Positions 4,715 to 59,035 of a stretch of DNA of 64,000 nt are shown here, one piece after another; position 1 is the stretch's first letter, and each line of letters starts with the position of its first letter. Under the pieces are notes generated by a model. That model saw nothing but the letters and a program-made list of their open reading frames with translations. It was not told the DNA's origin and made no database searches. The position numbers and the translations under genes were made by a program. This stretch comes from Nitrospirales bacterium (lineage in GTDB: Bacteria; Nitrospirota; Nitrospiria; Nitrospirales; UBA8639), in contig OZ244060.1 in assembly GCA_965215405.1 (NCBI GenBank), forward strand, positions 309,833-373,832. Reading direction: 5' to 3'.

Positions 4715-4870
4715 TTACGCTACGCCAACCCGACCGACGGCTTCGGCCTCTCCCCACACCCGTCGAATCGCCACCTGTATCTTCTTCTCGAAGTGCTCGA
4801 TTAGCTCGCGGTGGCAACAAAGGCTTGCTCGGCTTCGATCCCGGCAATGGTTTGAGGGATATCCGATAAT
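4715..4870 (-). pseudogene. hsdS: 3'-terminal remnant of a type I specificity (hsdS) gene, internally frameshifted
   Basis: Reverse translation gives DIPQTIAGIEAEQAFVATAS* and, in a second frame, RELIEHFEKKIQVAIRRVWGEAEAV...*. This parallels the C-terminus of the intact gene (IVAEIEAEQALVAANRELIERFEKKIRAAIERVWGE, 7313-7450). DNA similarity is visible (roughly three quarters identical by eye). Confidence 0.7.
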
Positions 4871-4919
4871 ATAATACTCACCCAAGGTTCGATACCACGA
4901 ATGAGGGCAGGGCAGTCAC

Positions 4920-4947
4920 TTGCATTTTTACTGAAATCTCCCATAAT
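4920..4947 (+). promoter_or_regulatory. Candidate promoter of the ATPase/Toprim-like operon
   Basis: TTGCAT (4920-4925), 16-nt spacer, CATAAT (4942-4947), ~80 nt upstream of ATG 5029, which has a GAAGGAAAG ribosome-binding region. Confidence 0.3.
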
Positions 4948-5028
4948 GAACGACGCCACTGGACTGGCGACTGAGTAAAAGATGGGGTAACGGGCACATC
5001 TGCGAAATGATCGAAGGAAAGACTGTTT

Positions 5029-6162
5029 ATGTACACAGAATCATCCGATACGGACCTCCATCTTCCTGAACTGTCGATCAAAGGATTTCGTGGAATCGCA
5101 GACCTTTCGATTCCACAGTTGGGCCGTGTGACGCTGATTGCAGGGAAAAATGGAGTCGGCAAGACCACTCTCCTTGATGCCGTCCGCATCTATGCAGCAC
5201 GCGGCAGCAATTTTGCTCTCACGGACGTATTACAGGACAGGGAAGAGCTTATTACTGCGGTTGCCGATGAGGACAGTGAAGAGTTATCAGCTCCTGATTT
5301 TGGGGCTCTCTTCCATGGCCGGAGCCTCTCGCCAGGGTCTCTCATATCAATAGGCCCTAATAGCGAAACAAAGCGACTCACCATCAGGGTTAGCCCGAAT
5401 TTGCACAAACCTGATATTTCCTCAACGAGTGATAAACCGTTACTTGAGATCGAATTTCAAGGTAAAAAAGAAGAGATTTTTATAGTCCCATGGCTTCCCT
5501 ACCGTGTACCACGTCGCATGCCGCAGGCTCACGAATCCAAGCTCCCACCTGCAATTCGATGTGAATCTTCAGGGCCGAGTTTAATGGACAACGAAAGCAT
5601 AGCGGGATTCTGGGACAGTGTAGCGCTTACGGATTATGAAACCCAAGCAGTACAGGCATTGCGATTGGTCTATGGCGACGAAGTAGACCGTGTTGCAATG
5701 GTTGGGGATGAAAAACGACCTCACCCGATCTATAATCGCCGCGCACTCTATGGCCCACTCTATGGTCGCCGGGCGGTCGTAAAGATAAAAAAGCAAGAGC
5801 GACCAGTTCCTTTGAAAAGCCTCGGTGACGGAGCCGTGCGCCTGTTCGGTGTCGCCTTGGCTCTTGCCAACAGCAAAGGCGGTTTCCTGGTTATCGACGA
5901 AGCTGAAAACGGTGTCCATCATTCGGTACAGCCCGACTTCTGGAAGATGATTATGCGAACGGCACACGATAACAACGTGCAGGTTCTCGCTACAACTCAT
6001 AGCTGGGACTGCGTGGCGGGTTTTGCACAAGCGGCAATAGATTCAGAGGAAGTAAACGGAGTTCTTATTCGCCTCGAGAAGGACATCGACGGAATTCGCG
6101 CCGTAGGATACTCTGAAGACAACCTCAAAGCCGCAGCCAAGCATGGTATCGAGGTCAGGTAA
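5029..6162 (+). CDS. ABC/SMC-like AAA ATPase (AAA_15/AAA_21-type; AriA / AbiLi / RloA / OLD-ATPase-like)
   Basis: Walker A GKNGVGKT; signature-like SLGDGAVRLFGVALAL; Walker B GFLVIDEAENGVH; H-loop ATTHS. The N-terminal ELSIKGFRGI is typical of RecF/SMC-like ATPases. Confidence 0.85.
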   Translation: MYTESSDTDLHLPELSIKGFRGIADLSIPQLGRVTLIAGKNGVGKTTLLDAVRIYAARGSNFALTDVLQDREELITAVADEDSEELSAPDFGALFHGRSLSPGSLISIGPNSETKRLTIRVSPNLHKPDISSTSDKPLLEIEFQGKKEEIFIVPWLPYRVPRRMPQAHESKLPPAIRCESSGPSLMDNESIAGFWDSVALTDYETQAVQALRLVYGDEVDRVAMVGDEKRPHPIYNRRALYGPLYGRRAVVKIKKQERPVPLKSLGDGAVRLFGVALALANSKGGFLVIDEAENGVHHSVQPDFWKMIMRTAHDNNVQVLATTHSWDCVAGFAQAAIDSEEVNGVLIRLEKDIDGIRAVGYSEDNLKAAAKHGIEVR

Positions 6163-6165
6163 TAT

Positions 6166-6795
6166 ATGGCTTTTCCCGGATCGGCTCCACCAGCCTCTCG
6201 CGTTCTTTTAGTCGAAGGACAAAACGACAAGCACGTTGTTCGGAATCTTCGCGACCGTCATCAACTCATGACAGATTTTGATATTCAGGATAGAGACGGC
6301 CTTGACCCACTGCTCGAAACCGTTGGTGCCGAGCTAAAGGTTCCAGGCCGTCAGGCCATCGGTATACTCGTGGATGCAAACGATGATTTGACTGCACGTT
6401 GGCAATCTGTCATTCATCGACTTTGGAAAGAGGATATCACAACGCCCCCGCAACCCGATCCCAAGGGAACGGTCATAGACACAATCGGAAAACCCCGCGT
6501 CGGCATCTGGATAATGCCCGATAATAAGTCAAGCGGAGAACTTGAAAAGTTTGTCGAGCAAATGATCCCTGACAGCGATCCGGTGTGGCCGTTGTCCCAG
6601 CACTACATCAACAAAATTCCTGTAGAAAACAGAAGGTTCACACAGACGAAGACACTACGAGCGAAGATCTATGCCTGGCTGGCGGCCAGAGAGGACCCGA
6701 GGCAAATGGGTTCCGCTATTGGCTCGCACGATTTGAACGTTGACGGCGTTCTCTGTCAGAACTTCCTTGGTTGGCTTAAGGCACTGTTCGCGTAG
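6166..6795 (+). CDS. Small Toprim-like protein (DUF4435 / DUF3226 / DUF4276 / RloB-type candidate), partner of the ATPase
   Basis: RVLLVEGQNDKHVV supplies a Toprim-style Glu and AIGILVDANDD a DxD-style acidic cluster. The start lies 3 nt after the ATPase stop. Confidence 0.65.
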   Translation: MAFPGSAPPASRVLLVEGQNDKHVVRNLRDRHQLMTDFDIQDRDGLDPLLETVGAELKVPGRQAIGILVDANDDLTARWQSVIHRLWKEDITTPPQPDPKGTVIDTIGKPRVGIWIMPDNKSSGELEKFVEQMIPDSDPVWPLSQHYINKIPVENRRFTQTKTLRAKIYAWLAAREDPRQMGSAIGSHDLNVDGVLCQNFLGWLKALFA

Positions 6796-7312: not shown

Positions 7313-9805
<2,493 letters not shown>

Positions 9806-27093: not shown

Positions 27094-28866
27094 TCACCGA
27101 TCACACTCACCCATGACGATGTCATAGGTGCCGAAGATGGTAATAATATCAGAAATCAGATAGCCGCGGGACATAAAATCAAACGCTCCCATATGGACGA
27201 ACGAGGGTGAGCGGATTTTCATGCGATAGGGCCGTGGGCTGCCGTCGCTGATCAGGAAAAATCCCAACTCCCCCTTGGGCACCTCGGTCCCGCAATAGGT
27301 TTCCCCCTTCGGTGGCTTAAACCCCTGGGTAAAGATGATGAAATGATGGATCAAGCTTTCCATGTCCCGCATCACGGCGGGTTTGGGCGGGGGAATCACC
27401 TGGGGCATATCCGCCATAATGGGGCCCTCCGGCAACTGATCCAGGCATTGCGCAATGATTCGAGCACTTTGCTTCATTTCTTCAACGCGAATCCAATACC
27501 GATCATACGTGTCTCCGTCTTTGCCGACGGGGACGTCCCAGTCCACGCGATCATAGACGCCGTACGGCTCGAGTTTGCGCACGTCATAGGCCACGCCCGA
27601 CCCCCGAAGCGTCGGCCCCGTGAGCCCGAAATTAATGGCGTCTTCCCCGGACACGACCGCCACGCCTTTGGTTCTGGCCACCCAGATCCGATTATTTTTC
27701 AACAAGACGTCGTATTCCTGCACGTGCTGAGAAAACGTTTTCAAAAAACTTCGAAGGCGTTCGATCAGTTCCGGGGTGAGATCGCCGTCCACCCCCCCAA
27801 TGCGATAATAATTCAGCGTTAATCGCGCGCCACATAACTGTTCAAAGAAGTCGAGCAATACTTCCCGCTCACGAAACGTCCAGAAGAAGACCGTCATGGC
27901 CCCGATATCCAGCGCCTGCGTGCCTAACCAGAAGAGGTGGCCAACGATTCGCTGAACTTCGGCCACGATCGTCCGGACATACTCGGCCCGCTCCGGCAGC
28001 GTCACGCCGACCAATTTTTCAACGGCGCGAACGTAGGCATAGTTGTTCGTCATGGCGCACACGTAATCCAGGCGATCCGTATGCGGGATGACCTGCATAT
28101 AATGGAGACCTTCGGCAAGTTTTTCGACGCCGCGGTGCAGATACCCCACGTCGGGAACGGCTTTGGTAACTCGTTCGCCGTCCAGTTCCAGCACCACCCG
28201 CAAGACCCCATGGGTGCTGGGGTGCTGTGGGCCCATATTGAGCAACAATTCCGTCGTGCGCCTGCCCGTCTGCTCGCCGGGCAGGGAGGAGTCAGAATCA
28301 TCCCCGGCCAGAAAGACGTGCCGTTGATCTTGCGGAACGTCGCGTTCCGTCCATTCACTCTCCGGTTCATCCAGGCGGGGAAGAAAATCAAAGGTGCTTC
28401 TCCATCCCCTGCCTTCGGTTGGAAAGTCCTTTCGAAGGGGATAGCCTTCCGCGTAATCTTCCGGCAACAGAATCCGTCGCGGGTCCGGATGCCCCTCGAA
28501 CGTGATCCCCATCAGATCGAATACTTCGCGTTCGAGAAAATTCGCGCCTTTCCAGATGGGCGTAATGGATCCGATGGTGGGGCAGTCTTCGGTCACGCGG
28601 GCTTTCACGCGAATCCGGGTTTTATGCGGGAGGGAGAGAAAGTGATAGATGACTTCAAACCGTTCGAGATCATCGGGATAGTCTGCCGAGCAAACGTCGG
28701 TAAGATGATCGAAGGCCATGCCGGGATCATCATGAAGGAAGCGCGTCACTTCGACGAGATCCCGTGCCCGCACCTGGGCCGAAAGATCGCCCCTCACGGG
28801 ATCCTCGCGCACGGACAGCACGGCCTCGGGAAAACGCTCGCGTAAGGTTTCAAGCACTCGATGCAT
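27094..28866 (-). CDS. nuoC: Fused NADH-quinone oxidoreductase subunits C and D
   Basis: NuoC part (MHRVLETLRERFPEAV…FDHLTDVCSADYP…), an acidic linker, then NuoD (LLLNMGPQHPSTHGVLR…YLHRGVEKL…GECDR). The start is placed at ATG 28866, because the longer track ORF would overlap nuoB. Confidence 0.88.
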   Translation of the reverse strand: MHRVLETLRERFPEAVLSVREDPVRGDLSAQVRARDLVEVTRFLHDDPGMAFDHLTDVCSADYPDDLERFEVIYHFLSLPHKTRIRVKARVTEDCPTIGSITPIWKGANFLEREVFDLMGITFEGHPDPRRILLPEDYAEGYPLRKDFPTEGRGWRSTFDFLPRLDEPESEWTERDVPQDQRHVFLAGDDSDSSLPGEQTGRRTTELLLNMGPQHPSTHGVLRVVLELDGERVTKAVPDVGYLHRGVEKLAEGLHYMQVIPHTDRLDYVCAMTNNYAYVRAVEKLVGVTLPERAEYVRTIVAEVQRIVGHLFWLGTQALDIGAMTVFFWTFREREVLLDFFEQLCGARLTLNYYRIGGVDGDLTPELIERLRSFLKTFSQHVQEYDVLLKNNRIWVARTKGVAVVSGEDAINFGLTGPTLRGSGVAYDVRKLEPYGVYDRVDWDVPVGKDGDTYDRYWIRVEEMKQSARIIAQCLDQLPEGPIMADMPQVIPPPKPAVMRDMESLIHHFIIFTQGFKPPKGETYCGTEVPKGELGFFLISDGSPRPYRMKIRSPSFVHMGAFDFMSRGYLISDIITIFGTYDIVMGECDR

Positions 28867-28901
28867 GGAACGGCAAAGTCCGGTTGGAATGAATGGGGAC
28901 C

Positions 28902-29381
28902 TTACTTCACGAACACTTTTTCCTTTTGAATTTTTTCTTGCAATTTCATCAAGGCATCCAAGAGGGCTTCCGGGCGTGGAGGACACCCCGCCACGTAGAC
29001 GTCGACCGGCACGATTTGATCCACTCCCTGCACCACGCTGTAACTGTTGTAATGATTGCCCGACGTCGCACATGAGCCCATGGAGACGACGTATCGTGGT
29101 TCGGCCATCTGATCATAGATACGCCGAATCACCGGCGCCATTTTGCGACACACGGTTCCGGCCACGATCATGACGTCCGATTGTCTGGGAGACGCGCGAA
29201 AGACGCCTGCTCCGAATCGGTCGATGTCATAGCGCGAGGACACCGACGCAATCATTTCAATCGCGCAACAGGCCAGCCCGAAGGTCATCGGCCACAAGGC
29301 CGACTTCCGGCACCAACTCACCAGATAATCGAGATTGGTGGTAAGAATATTCGGTTCAAACCGTCGTTCCAGCATACTCAT
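28902..29381 (-). CDS. nuoB: NADH-quinone oxidoreductase subunit B
   Basis: [17 protein letters not shown] and GCPPRPEAL cluster-N2 cysteine motifs. Confidence 0.92.
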
Positions 29382-31265: not shown

Positions 31266-31317
31266 ACACTAGCGTTCAGTCCAGGGATTAGTCAAGGTAA
31301 GTCAGGGATTGATCGTG

Positions 31318-31560
31318 TCTCCGTTTGAATTTCTTTGCTTGTCCGGTCCCCGTTTCTTTGGGGCTTGGTTCAACAAGGACGAGGCCGTGATGTCAACCTG
31401 AGCCACGACCCTCTTTTTCCCCTCCGTTGTCAGGCGGGGCGAGAGGAGATGGTGTGACGTTGACAAGATCAACCTTATCTGATTCCCCTCCTTTGTCAGG
31501 AGGGGGCAGGGGAGGTAGAGTCTTCAACGGTGCCCACCGGTGCACCATGGGCGGGTGGGC
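31318..31560. repeat. Interspersed repeat cluster, locus 2 (inverted A-type 31318-31406 plus inverted B-type arm)
   Basis: Reverse complement of the 1221-1312 element, followed by CCCCTCCTTTGTCAGGAGGGGGCAGGGGAGGTAGAGTCTTC. Confidence 0.85.
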
Positions 31561-31701
31561 TCTCGGTCTCGGCGCGGGGGTGGTGCTGCGGGCTGCGTCG
31601 GGCGGTGCCACGTTGAACGGTTTTTCGGTGAGACGAATCCGGCGGTGCGCCCCGCCCCCCGACAGGCAGTGCTCGTTCGATGGATTGTCGGTCCGAGGGC
31701 G

Positions 31702-33099
31702 TCACTCTCTGTTCGGGAAATTCGGGTGGAACGGAAACGTTCGGCTCCAGATCTTTCCCTTTCCTGGCACGTACTGGCCGGTTCGGATACGGTCGACGTC
31801 GTAATCCGGGAGCGGGATGGCCCTCATGCAAAAGAGGAACTCTCTAAAGGGCCAACGAAAGCTGAAGTCCAGATTATCGAAACCATGCGGTTTGCGGTCG
31901 TCGGGAAGATCGTTGGCGTCAGCGGGGATGACGTGTACAAAGAACGGGGGCTTGATATCCGCCGGCGTGCACGGCTCCTTGAAGTAGATTAACCTGTCTC
32001 TGAGGAGGTAGACGTCGAAGTCGGAGCGGACGACCGGGGCGCCGACCGTCCCGGACACGATTGACGAGTAAAGTGCCCGATACTCAGAGCCGAAATACTC
32101 GAAGAACACCAACCCGATACTGCCGGCCATGACCAGGGAGCACATTGTCAGCAAGAAGGGAGTCCGTATGGCCGGCCGGTTCAGGCCGGCAAAGGATACC
32201 CGAAAGCTCGCCGGCCCCCGTCCCCGAACGCCCCGGGCCAGCCAGAGTTCCCCCGAATAGAACAGGCAGAGAAGTCCGAACAGATACTCCTTCACCTCCA
32301 TCAAATCGTGCGAGTCATGGGACACGTTGATATACGAAGAAGCCAGCACGAGCGTCACGGTTGCCCCAGCGACCATGAACAACCTGGGTTGTCTGGAAAG
32401 CAAGGAATAGATGACAAAGAGAAAAAGCAGGATTTTGGCTCTGCCGGAAACGAAACTTGGGTCGAAGAACATCTCCCACCCAACCGGGCCACGATAGGCT
32501 ATCCAGTAACTATCCATCACCAGGAAGCCGAACATCAGCGGTAGTGACGGTACTGGAATCCCGAGGACCGTGCGTTGCCGGCAGAAGAAAGCGGCGCTGG
32601 TGACGAGGCACAACAGGACTGGTCCGAAATCGACGACCTTGAGAACTAACTTTACTAACGTTAGGTTAATATTGTGAACATTGAATTCGTCCTGTGTATT
32701 CACCGTCTTGAGGAATTCCGGGGTGGTAAACCCGAAGAGACGCTGCCCCCAACTGATTTCTTCGCCTGCGCCGAAGAGCAGGGCCAGACCACCGAGAAGA
32801 TAGAGACCGCGCCGAATCCCCTTGTCTGCCGAAGCCGTAACGAATAGCAAGAGGCCCGCCACGAGGAGAAACCCCGCCGTGAGATTCTCTACCCAGTAAT
32901 CTTCTCGAGTCAGCAAAAGGATGCGTGACGGGTCGGCCACGTTGAGATAGGCGAAGAATAAGACGTTGAGGCACAGGCAGAGGAACCCGAAGACAGCCAG
33001 GCGGCTGTCGAGGCCGGGGTCACGCGCGGGCGTGGAGGGGGGGGGGGGGGGGGATGTATATCGGAACCCATGATTCTTCCTCTGTTCAGCCTTTGGCAA
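31702..33099 (-). CDS. Polytopic membrane protein of unknown function with a C-terminal soluble domain; 5' end contains a 17-nt homopolymer
   Basis: 465-aa ORF with many hydrophobic segments. The track start is a TTG without a good Shine-Dalgarno. A well-placed ATG (33071) with a GAGG Shine-Dalgarno is out of frame at the present tract length. Confidence 0.6.
   Translation of the reverse strand: MPKAEQRKNHGFRYTSPPPPPSTPARDPGLDSRLAVFGFLCLCLNVLFFAYLNVADPSRILLLTREDYWVENLTAGFLLVAGLLLFVTASADKGIRRGLYLLGGLALLFGAGEEISWGQRLFGFTTPEFLKTVNTQDEFNVHNINLTLVKLVLKVVDFGPVLLCLVTSAAFFCRQRTVLGIPVPSLPLMFGFLVMDSYWIAYRGPVGWEMFFDPSFVSGRAKILLFLFVIYSLLSRQPRLFMVAGATVTLVLASSYINVSHDSHDLMEVKEYLFGLLCLFYSGELWLARGVRGRGPASFRVSFAGLNRPAIRTPFLLTMCSLVMAGSIGLVFFEYFGSEYRALYSSIVSGTVGAPVVRSDFDVYLLRDRLIYFKEPCTPADIKPPFFVHVIPADANDLPDDRKPHGFDNLDFSFRWPFREFLFCMRAIPLPDYDVDRIRTGQYVPGKGKIWSRTFPFHPNFPNRE
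33037..33053. repeat. 17-nt homopolymer (G on plus strand, C on the coding strand) in the first ~20 codons of the membrane-protein gene
   Basis: Counted directly: G run 33037-33053. It encodes S-PPPPP-S in the track frame. Confidence 0.95.
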
Positions 33100-33259
33100 A
33101 AGAGACCTACGCGGGCAAAATGGGCCGTGGTTGCGGGACCGCGCTCAATGTGATGGCGGATCGTGGGGGTGCGGGCCAAGGCCGGAGTGCAAGGGGACGT
33201 CGGCGAATCGCGAGCCCTCTGATCTCCCTTGGTTAACCCCGAACATCGAGAAGCAAAGC

Positions 33260-34058
33260 CTATGCCGCTTTTGCCGGGGCTGTCAATAGAAATGACATTT
33301 GGGTCCCTGCCATGGAGTGTCCGCCCGTCGCCTGCCAGGGGGTAGCCTTAACGCTCCGCTCTTGGGGTTGGGTTGGGTCCCTGGAGGTCTTTTCCGTCAA
33401 CAGGGAATGGCCCTGGCCACCCGCTCTTTCCCCGTCCCGCTTTCCCCGGTACGGAACAGATTCGTTGGGGCGTCCGCGACCCGGCGCATGCACTCAAACA
33501 CCGCCCGCATGGCTTCGCTGTTCCCAAGCACGTGGGCAAAGGCGTCCTCACGCCGGCCCTGCTTCCGCCGCTCCGCCACCTCTTGGCGAAGCCGCGCCTC
33601 CCGGAAGGCTTTCTCGATGGGGACCAATAATTCCTCCGTGTTGATGGGTTTCGTCAGAGAATCGAACGCCCCCCCTGGTTTCTCGCCTCTACCGCGGACT
33701 CGACCGTGCCGGATGCCGTCAGCATGAGGACGTTACAGGCGGGATGACGTTGGATGATTTCGTACAGGATCTCGAAACCATCCAGGCCCTTCATCCGAAG
33801 ATCCGTGAGCACCGCGAGCGCGTCGCACCTCCCCGGATGATCCGGAGCGGCTCGCCCCTCCGGAGCCACGGTGACCCGGTAGTCATGCTCCTCCAATAGA
33901 TCTTCAAGAAGATGGCGCATCTCCCGGTCATCATCGACAATCAAAATGGAATTGGTGGGGACAAGGGGAGGCTTTTTCTTTTTCCCCTCCTTTGTCAGGA
34001 GGGGCCAGGGGAGGTAGAGTCTTCGATGGCGCCCCCGGGGCTTCATGGGCGGGGTCAT
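33260..34058 (-). pseudogene. Decayed NtrC-family (sigma54-dependent) response regulator: receiver domain, frameshift, then an AAA+ domain truncated after Walker A
   Basis: Receiver domain: ILIVDDDREMRHLLEDLL…VLTDLRMKGLDGF…LTASGTVESAVEA. A frameshift in the C7 run at 33669-33675 separates it from AFDSLTKPINTEELLVPIEKAF…LGNSEAMRAVFE…TGESGTGKERVARAI. Homology then stops. A B-type repeat occupies the 5' end. Confidence 0.7.
33964..34055. repeat. Interspersed repeat, locus 3 (single inverted B-type unit)
   Basis: AGGGGAGGCTTTTTC…CCCCTCCTTTGTCAGGAGGGGCCAGGGGAGGTAGAGTCTTCGATGGCGCCCCCGGGGCTTCATGGGCGG. Confidence 0.85.
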
Positions 34059-34205
34059 CAGGTGGGATCCTCCGTTGACATAGAGGATCCCGGCGCAGAG
34101 AGGTCATCGGACGTGGGCTGTTCCGTCGGTTCTTCAGGAAATCGTGCGACCCATATGCTCATTCTCCCCTCTAACGGGGCCCAAGAGGGGCTGACGGGTC
34201 GTCAT

Positions 34206-37127: not shown

Positions 37128-37533
37128 GTGGCTCAGTTTGACATAGAGCCTCCTGCCCAGCGAGCACCGGGGGGCACCGTCGAAAACTCTACCTCCCCTG
37201 ACCCCTCCTTACAAAGGAGGGGAAACTGCCGGCGTCAACGTCGGACCTTATAACCTCCCCTTTGTAAGGGGAGGGAAGGAGGGGTAGAGCCTCCCGCCCA
37301 GCGAGCACCGGGGCACCGTCGAAGACTCTACCTCCCCCGGCCCCTCCTTACAAAGGAGGGGAAAAGAGTTTCCGCATCCCCCCCTGCGGATGCCGTCAGA
37401 TGGACCTCGCCTCGCCTGACAAAGGAGGGGGAAAAGAGGGACGTGGCTCAGTTTGAAATGACGGCCTCGTACTTGTTGAAACAAGCCTCAAAGAAACGGG
37501 GACCGGACAAGCAAAGAAATTCAAACGGAGCCA
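37128..37533. repeat. Interspersed repeat cluster, locus 4 (orphan A-type left end, B-type units, then a full A-type 37442-37533)
   Basis: GTGGCTCAGTTTGACAT at 37128 runs straight into B-type sequence. B arms at ~37180-37225, 37253-37290 and 37320-37365. Full A copy at the right end. Confidence 0.85.
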
Positions 37534-58670: not shown

Positions 58671-59035
58671 GTGGCTCGGTTTGAAATGACGACCTCATGC
58701 TTTTTGAAACAGGCCCCAAAGAAACGGGGACCATACAAGAAAAGAAATTCAAACCGAGCCACGACCGAAAAGAGTCCGGAAGCACTTGACTCCGGTAAGC
58801 GGTTGCCCCTCACTCTGCCTGACGACGGAAGGGAACGGGAGAAGGTCCAAGCCTCCCCTTTGTCAGGGGAGGGAAGGTAGGGGAGAGCCTCCCGCCCATG
58901 AAGCCCCTGTGGGCGTCGAAGACTCTACCTCCCCTGACCCCTCCTTACAAAGGAGGGGAAAAGTTTCCGCGTCCCCCCTGCGGATGCCATCAGATGGACC
59001 TCGCCCCGCCTGACAAAGGAGGGGGAAAAGAGGGT
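58671..59035. repeat. Interspersed repeat cluster, locus 5 (A-type with extension, then B-type palindrome)
   Basis: GTGGCTCGGTTTGAAATGAC…AAATTCAAACCGAGCCAC (58671-58762), a shared extension to ~58835, B arms at 58851-58960 and a shared tail to ~59035. Confidence 0.9.

Follow-up and report, generated by a model that had tools for sequence, protein, structure and literature searches.

Homopolymer contingency loci are textbook features of a few host-adapted pathogens in the genera Neisseria, Haemophilus, Campylobacter and Helicobacter. The fucosyltransferase genes of Helicobacter pylori carry poly-C tracts near the 5' end, the opa genes of Neisseria form a multigene family of outer-membrane beta-barrels with CTCTT repeats in the leader-peptide coding region, and lic1 of Haemophilus influenzae combines a tetranucleotide switch with several starts in different frames and graded expression. 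Phasevarions involve phase-variable Type I and Type III restriction-modification (R-M) methyltransferases. Further background is provided by the poly-G/C contingency genes of Campylobacter jejuni, among them genes for surface glycans and flagellar modification (PMC8355987), by general Neisseria repeat biology (PMC5320596, PMC5084427), and by the inactivation of Listeria monocytogenes inlA through a 5' homopolymer and the general 5' bias of homopolymeric tracts (PMC2831843). Here we analyse a 64,000-nucleotide stretch of a Nitrospirales bacterium genome (contig OZ244060.1, positions 309,833 to 373,832; hereafter the window), in which the gene for a predicted membrane protein contains an uninterrupted run of 17 C's (C17) close to its 5' end. 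From sequence comparison we consider it likely, at a probability of about 0.75, that C17 is a genuine hypermutable homopolymer that acts as a translational phase-variation (contingency) switch and was assembled in the frame of a TTG start. The mechanism is of a known kind, a classic homopolymer contingency locus; the family of proteins, the lengths of its tracts and their spread across phyla appear to be new.

The gene lies on the minus strand (coordinates of all features are collected in Table 1), and its coding strand reads AGAGGAAGAATC-ATG-GGT-TCC-GAT-ATA-CAT-(C)17-TCC-ACG, the context that the original prediction had described. The stretch before ATG 33071 reads ...CAGAGGAAGAATC, the tract is followed by TCC ACG CCC, and the C's encode Pro codons whichever frame is read. 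The same prediction held that the long open reading frame (ORF) is open only from TTG 33099 and that this codon lacks a convincing ribosome-binding site, and we find the same: AGG, 6 nt away, is its sole upstream purine motif and a weak one. The frame of ATG 33071 belongs to a listed ORF at 32910..33179(-). We rebuilt the gene in silico with tract lengths of 9-24 and scored the frame of the upstream starts. When n mod 3 = 0 (15, 18, 21), ATG 33071 is in frame with the ~445-codon body, in agreement with the earlier claim that this ATG, with its GAGG, would join the long ORF at 15 or 18; when n mod 3 = 2 (14, 17, 20), the state as assembled, TTG 33099 alone is in frame; and when n mod 3 = 1, the body is left without any in-frame start 5' of the tract. 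The TTG form begins MPKAEQRKNHGFRYTSPPP... (MPKAEQRK...), and the ATG form reads MGSDIH-Pn-STPARD. Apart from C17 and a second run, C29, elsewhere in the window, homopolymers in the 64 kb reach 8 nt at most, and base composition predicts only ~7e-5 G/C runs of >=17 nt, which indicates that C17 is not a chance feature.

Copies of the gene in the window genome and in a related strain differ at the tract. A protein search returned 575 homologues, several per genome. In the window genome, the protein identical to the window ORF (P0121) is encoded on a 2,462,645-bp contig together with two others: P0003, which is in the ATG frame and has the N-terminus MGSDIPPPHSTPARD (MGSDIPPPH...), and P0004, which shares 96% identity with the window protein and whose gene call begins only at an internal start. 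This suggests that the three copies (P0121 in the TTG frame, P0003 in the ATG frame, and P0004) represent three different states. Gene callers chose the TTG start in P0001, P0121 and P0122. We also compared the window with the DNA of three copies on contig ctg150080l (359 kb) of the related strain. The syntenic orthologue (L031; gene order SecA, sigma-54 fragment, gene, Methyltransf_28, nuo) has a C14 tract and L118 has C20, and the tract of L030 is C5TC6, 12 nt with one T. L030 is in the ATG frame, and its product, P0002, begins MGSDIHPPPPSTPARD (MGSDIHPPPP...); whether such an N-terminus occurs elsewhere had been posed as a question, which this paralogue answers. The interrupting T in the in-frame copy is what would be expected of a stabilised "on" allele. 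In the four-way alignment, ~75 nt 5' and 18 nt 3' of the tract are identical and the tract alone differs (17, 14, 20, 12). The GAGG is kept in L030, L031 and L118 and also precedes the equivalent ATG of a further locus (L001), and downstream of the tract ~445 codons are open in all four copies. The window copy resembles its syntenic orthologue no more closely than it does the paralogues, and the differences between copies are concentrated in predicted loops.

To place the tract within the wider family, we scanned one genome per species and obtained 29 loci in complete metagenome-assembled genomes (MAGs) labelled as Gammaproteobacteria, Dehalococcoidia, Binatia, Bryobacterales, Latescibacteria, Spirochaetia, Gemmatimonadota, Caldilineaceae, Vicinamibacterales and Pseudomonadales. 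With the invariant GEEISWG motif as anchor, the 5' end could be seen in 41 gene copies from about 20 genomes. A G/C run of >=9 nt was present in 20 of these copies (>=12 nt in 14; range 9-26 nt) and in 12 of the genomes, always 240-284 nt 5' of GEEISWG and 2-8 codons ahead of a conserved GLDS and the first helix. Two MAGs carry poly-G on the coding strand, giving Gly rather than Pro: one from Dehalococcoidia (G12, G15, G19) and one from Caldilineaceae (G15, G16). The substitution of poly-G for poly-C in two lineages indicates that the conserved element is the DNA homopolymer, not the peptide. In the protein database, P4-P9 or G5-G7 occupies the site in 35 of 106 complete N-termini, some near-identical leaders are distinct solely in run length (MNANPPPP / PPPPP / PPPPPP), and nine family proteins are N-truncated calls. 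ATG 33071 corresponds to the homologous family start (M-G/V-S-D...), the family N-terminus lying ~10-17 codons before GLDS. Subfamily loci contain 20 G/C runs of >=9 nt in 207 kb; a control set of 80 loci from distant relatives in JGI metagenomes, mostly short-read assemblies, contains none in 208 kb.

The frames of the tract-bearing copies are mixed. An ATG is in frame in 9 of the 20, a GTG or TTG only in 4, and no start in 7; among the 14 tracts of >=12 nt, the corresponding counts are 6, 3 and 5. Stochastic switching predicts such a near-even split, which speaks against a linker that is always in frame. Long tracts assembled in frame include C18 in L014, G16 and G15 in L016 and G15 in L013. 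Paired ATGs in different frames 5' of the tract occur in L007, L016, L001 and L003, paralleling the ATG/TTG pair here; in L007 the two ATGs stand at -16 and -12 and have one AGGAG in common. Taken together, four features expected of a contingency locus are present: a G/C run of at least ~8 nt without interruption, placed between start codon and ORF body, polymorphic in length with conserved flanks, and belonging to a class of tracts that is commoner than chance predicts and commoner than in related sequence.

Clusters of family genes are seen at L011/L013 (OZ243978.1, 586-601 kb), L016 and L001; one Dehalococcoidia MAG has a tandem array of at least six family genes (G12, G15, G19 and interrupted versions), while in Caldilineaceae the genes stand in divergent pairs (G15/G16), and tandem pairs (C10/C26) also occur. 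A Binatia MAG (L003, tracts at 933-945 and 4886-4895) has a 5' cassette ...ATGAATTCTA-Cn-GAGAAAC... before its two family genes, as C10 in one and interrupted in the other, and the same cassette also stands ahead of an unrelated arylsulfotransferase (ASST) lipoprotein gene, with C13. Tract-bearing leaders thus seem to be common to different surface genes.

In the mechanism that we propose, replication slippage (slipped-strand mispairing) would add or remove C's at high frequency. A length divisible by 3 would give strong translation from ATG 33071 with its GAGG. A length with n mod 3 = 2 would leave only the weak TTG 33099, with expression low or absent because ribosomes starting at the ATG halt after 53 codons at n = 17, and n mod 3 = 1 would be a null state with no start. 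If the three or more copies of a genome switched independently of one another, a clonal population would become a mosaic of membrane-protein variants. The original prediction had proposed either an ON/OFF contingency switch captured in the OFF state or a miscall by one base. The comparative data favour the switch; "OFF" is best put more mildly, since the body can still be read from the weak TTG when n mod 3 = 2 and the assembled state may thus be "low or off", not necessarily null. We are evenly divided on a broader reading, in which this would be a community-wide, horizontally shared contingency family, spread over at least eight labelled phyla in one set of long-read MAGs whose mix of taxa resembles a host-associated (possibly sponge) consortium, and likely serving envelope-glycan or receptor variation in uncultured symbionts, beyond the pathogens from which such switches are known. 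A literature search returned no paper in which homopolymer phase variation was connected with the family, with its accessions or with sponge/MAG symbionts, and the cross-phylum spread of family and tract appears to be undescribed in the literature.

Several observations weigh against a hypermutable switch at C17. Tract lengths, the distinction between 17 and 18 included, are known from assembled sequence alone. Each uninterrupted tract of the species cluster (14, 17, 20) has n mod 3 = 2 and would need one more base to bring the ATG into frame, a pattern that could reflect chance (~1 in 9), a consistent one-base undercall, or selection in favour of the TTG frame and its low state. The ratio of nonsynonymous to synonymous substitution rates (dN/dS) among close copies is 0.53-0.91, a value that relaxed constraint fits as well as diversifying selection; the variation between copies is accordingly compatible both with recombining, diversifying surface-exposed segments and with relaxed constraint. 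Any state encoded in the DNA could also be blurred if RNA polymerase slips on a run of 17 nt. A promoter consensus scan was uninformative, its best hit having 9/12 matches and overlapping the start codons. The window protein has no match in Pfam, NCBIfam or PADLOC, a profile search of the PDB was empty, and Foldseek against the PDB gave no match at E<=0.001 (best TM ~0.18).

Of the alternatives, the one that survives best is a one-base consensus error, by which the true tract would be C18 (or C15), the ATG in frame and the gene simply on; we regard this as unlikely. Long-read consensus is least reliable at long G/C homopolymers, homopolymer indels being the main residual error of long reads, and contig names such as ctg150080l resemble those of long-read metagenome assemblies, a style that we take to be that of a long-read assembler. 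The common shortfall of one base at 14, 17 and 20 also fits such an error. Yet the copies differ by 3, 5 and 6 nt, beyond a one-base error, and tracts of equal or greater length were assembled in frame, including the 29-nt run in the window and the C18, G16 and G15 tracts listed above, while over the 20 tracts the frames fall at about one third each. Even if a miscall were right for the window copy, the tract would remain a slippery switch. A stronger version, in which systematic undercalling keeps long tracts from ever being in frame, was ruled out, as the ATG is in frame for 6 of the 14 tracts of >=12 nt. A one-base indel test of all window runs of >=6 nt gave no clear broken-gene pattern and was confounded by the merging of adjacent genes.

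An action at the RNA level is rather less probable still. Here the polymerase would slip on the C run and produce mixed mRNA lengths, so that some in-frame product would arise at every DNA length, making the tract a constitutive attenuator or rescuer instead of a heritable switch. Transcriptional slippage occurs at runs far shorter than the 17-29 nt of the tracts considered here, and the bodies of out-of-frame copies are intact. Slippage of this kind on long homopolymers is documented and can restore frameshifted genes (PMC5009743, PMC4256274). The known cases, however, chiefly concern A/T runs, and slippage in the transcript leaves unexplained both the DNA length differences among copies and strains and the shortened or interrupted tracts of in-frame copies (C5TC6 in L030, and P0003). 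It is also compatible with DNA switching, not exclusive of it, and may make "off" states leaky.

We find it improbable that there is no switch at all, with TTG 33099 as the true start and the tract as a variable polyproline linker in a cytoplasmic N-terminal tail that changes by whole codons. The uninterrupted tracts do differ by multiples of 3, which keeps the TTG frame in all of them, and gene callers picked the TTG in three proteins. The family N-terminus, however, aligns with the ATG start and not with the TTG form, which is 10 residues longer; P0002 and P0003 use the ATG frame; and the TTG has a weak 3-nt AGG where the ATG has GAGG at ideal spacing. A linker would likewise not account for the 7 of 20 tract-bearing copies without an in-frame start, for the replacement of poly-C by poly-G in other lineages, or for a codon usage that is exclusively CCC. 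Finally, that the gene is a pseudogene in decay, one copy of a repeated element with the frameshift as simple damage, is very hard to credit: the dN/dS range would fit it, as would a unit that includes a truncated NtrC-type fragment and is flanked by repeats resembling repetitive extragenic palindromes or miniature inverted-repeat transposable elements (REP/MITE-like), but four copies stay open for ~445 codons past the tract, every invariant family residue is kept, the sole frame problem sits exactly in the homopolymer, and the differences between copies cluster in loops instead of being evenly spread.

The second long tract of the window strengthens the case for slippage at C17 as a switch. 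The original prediction had noted a second very long G/C homopolymer in coding sequence and had left a shared mechanism and a shared artefact side by side; the run is indeed there, as G29 on the coding strand. It joins an N6_Mtase domain (aa 134-402) to two Type I specificity (Methylase_S) domains in an 830-aa HsdM-HsdS fusion, and a one-base change in it shortens the open frame of 833 codons to 525 or 453. The fusion looks like a phase-variable Type I methyltransferase of the phasevarion kind. Because the methyltransferase/specificity junction is a classic phase-variable site, a shared mechanism is the better reading of the two tracts.

What the protein may do can be approached from its predicted structure. 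The AlphaFold model is confident (predicted local distance difference test, pLDDT, 82.5; predicted TM score, pTM, 0.79) and has ~9 membrane helices and a C-terminal beta-sandwich (residues 355-465). The hallmark of the family is the invariant motif GEEISWGQR, and the invariant residues D67, E71, G112-E113-E114, W117, Q119, R120, H142 and N143, all retained in the window protein, suggest an active site near one membrane face. The segment between helices 1 and 2 contains D67 and E71 (REDxWxEN), and GEEISWGQR comes after helix 3, with the orientation inferred solely from charge distribution. The C-terminal domain has an invariant C377 and a nearly invariant C424; together with an Arg-rich loop at 291-313, these paired Cys residues point to an extracytoplasmic location for this domain. 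Among 1.84 billion cluster representatives, a profile search retrieved 8,561 relatives, of which 896 have E<=1e-30. Neither Pfam nor NCBIfam assigned a family, PMT, PMT_2 and Wzy_C included, to 82 aligned members, and longer members and distant relatives of ~220-300 aa were also negative. Neither sequence nor fold placed the protein in the GT-C or Wzy_C/WaaL groups.

A hint of function comes from the C-terminal beta-sandwich of ~115 aa, an unannotated module without a Pfam model. Proteins of 900-1850 aa (P0123, P0126-P0132, P0163 and others) contain 3-10 copies of it in tandem. The N-terminal domains of some of these proteins are Wzy_C (P0123) or PMT/PMT_2 (P0128, P0129, P0163); Wzy_C is of the O-antigen ligase/polymerase type, and PMT/PMT_2 are GT-C glycosyltransferases. 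This recurrence of the module in Wzy_C and PMT proteins hints at an envelope-glycan role. In the Dehalococcoidia locus L002, downstream of a family gene (C18) come a GT2 glycosyltransferase gene (4758-6292), which has its own C17 at the 5' end (4740-4756), and then the gene of an EamA-like small membrane protein. The trio is reminiscent of a Gtr/Arn-type lipid-linked sugar module; the arrangement of family gene, GT2 and EamA-like gene is not recurrent. Judging by the shared C-terminal module, the protein is probably a periplasm-facing cell-envelope enzyme, a conclusion that we hold less firmly than the switch itself, and we propose an envelope-glycan-related role with low to moderate confidence. 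A phage origin found no support, IMG/VR containing no relatives of the family.

The gene is part of a duplicated unit comprising the leader, the tract, the gene and the upstream truncated response-regulator/sigma-54 fragment. A G7 run in that fragment (coding strand; C7 on the plus strand, 33669-33675) is G5 in the related strain, and a +1 change in it extends the open frame from 149 to 235 codons, making it another length-variable run inside the unit. REP/MITE-like repeats with the core GAAGACTCTACCTCCCCTGGCCCCTCCTGACAAAGGAGGGGAA and a hairpin CCCCTCCT...AGGAGGGG occur at least eight times in the window and bracket the unit. Rfam reports two tRNAs elsewhere in the window and nothing at the leader, and the leader does not fold better than its shuffles (z = +1.4). 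Four SPAdes-type short-read contigs of the same organism, with identical NuoA/NuoB (L113, L114, L116, L117) stop 220-500 nt upstream of the Methyltransf_28 gene; since they end at the edge of the repeated family gene, the locus is lost from short-read assemblies. The exact tract-flank pattern was not found in JGI metagenomes. Among the neighbouring genes, NuoC and NuoD are fused (27094-29073, minus strand), with the "subunit C/D 2" chain of 7q5y as the best solved-structure match and not an E. coli-type NuoCD, and the SecA of the window is nearest to E. coli-type entries.

Table 1. Positions of the tract, its start codons and other features in the 64,000-nucleotide window
Feature	Position	Strand	Remark
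C17 homopolymer, putative hypermutable tract	33037..33053	(-) coding; G17 on +	Direct sequence reading
ATG start codon	33069..33071	(-)	18 nt 5' of C17; out of frame at n = 17
Shine-Dalgarno-like GAGG	33079..33082	(-)	Spacer to ATG 33071 of 7 nt
Alternative TTG start	33097..33099	(-)	In frame with body when n mod 3 = 2
Long ORF, 465 aa from TTG 33099	31702..33099	(-)	Predicted polytopic membrane protein
Out-of-frame ATG product at n = 17	32910..33071	(-)	53 codons, then TGA at 32912..32910
Paralogous unit, 2.7 kb	31313..34027	(-)	93-94% identical to two other copies (L030, L118) in related strain
NtrC-type gene remnant (receiver and first ~40 aa of sigma-54 AAA+ domain)	33397..34058	(-)	Present in every unit copy
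Second long tract, C29/G29	8464..8492	C29 on +; G29 on coding strand	Within ORF 7313-9805 (-); Gly9 linker, in frame at 29
REP/MITE-like repeat sites	~1396-1796, 31412-31525, 33961-34070, 37170-37437, 58891-59031		

The locus would extend the logic of a contingency switch to an unannotated, multi-copy membrane-protein family in which about half of the sampled copies carry a 9-26-nt G/C run, in genomes whose labels include Gammaproteobacteria, Dehalococcoidia, Binatia, Acidobacteriota, Chloroflexota and Spirochaetia. If the switch is real, uncultured members of consortia would have stochastic variation of their surfaces as a general strategy, there would be a concrete handle on a family of thousands of members without assigned function, and "frameshifted", N-truncated and TTG-started calls in this family would have to be read as switch states, neither errors nor pseudogenes. 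The analysis also points to another probable switch in the window, in the Type I R-M methyltransferase-specificity fusion.

Compared with known systems, the locus shares with those of Campylobacter and H. pylori a G/C homopolymer in the 5' coding region at which slippage shifts the frame, membership of multigene families with tracts, and the presence of several loci per genome, R-M methyltransferases and envelope-related genes among them. It differs in that the tracts reach 26-29 nt where 8-14 is typical there, the hosts are uncultured and carry the labels of many phyla, the family is unrelated and uncharacterised, and switching here is deduced from sequence. L. monocytogenes inlA likewise has a 5' homopolymer in a surface-related gene that allows efficient, reversible truncation, although there the runs are short poly-A/T in single genes, whereas here long G/C runs are kept across a multigene, multi-phylum family. 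The G29 tract resembles phasevarions in being a simple repeat inside an hsdM/hsdS-type gene, where a length change abolishes or alters methylation specificity, and departs from them in the fusion of HsdM with HsdS and in a tract that would serve as an in-frame Gly9 linker. As in lic1, two starts lie in two frames upstream of the repeat and two of the three frames give full-length protein, although lic1 uses a tetranucleotide repeat in a gene of other function and graded expression here is predicted. As in Neisseria opa, several paralogues per genome each have their own 5' leader repeat, are independently in or out of frame, and look mosaic, with differences concentrated in exposed variable segments; opa, by contrast, has a pentamer repeat and encodes a beta-barrel adhesin, where this family has a homopolymer and a predicted alpha-helical polytopic protein, so that the resemblance is one of logic only. 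By analogy, the multi-copy 5'-leader logic of the family appears closest to that of Neisseria opa, and its two-start design closest to that of H. influenzae lic1.

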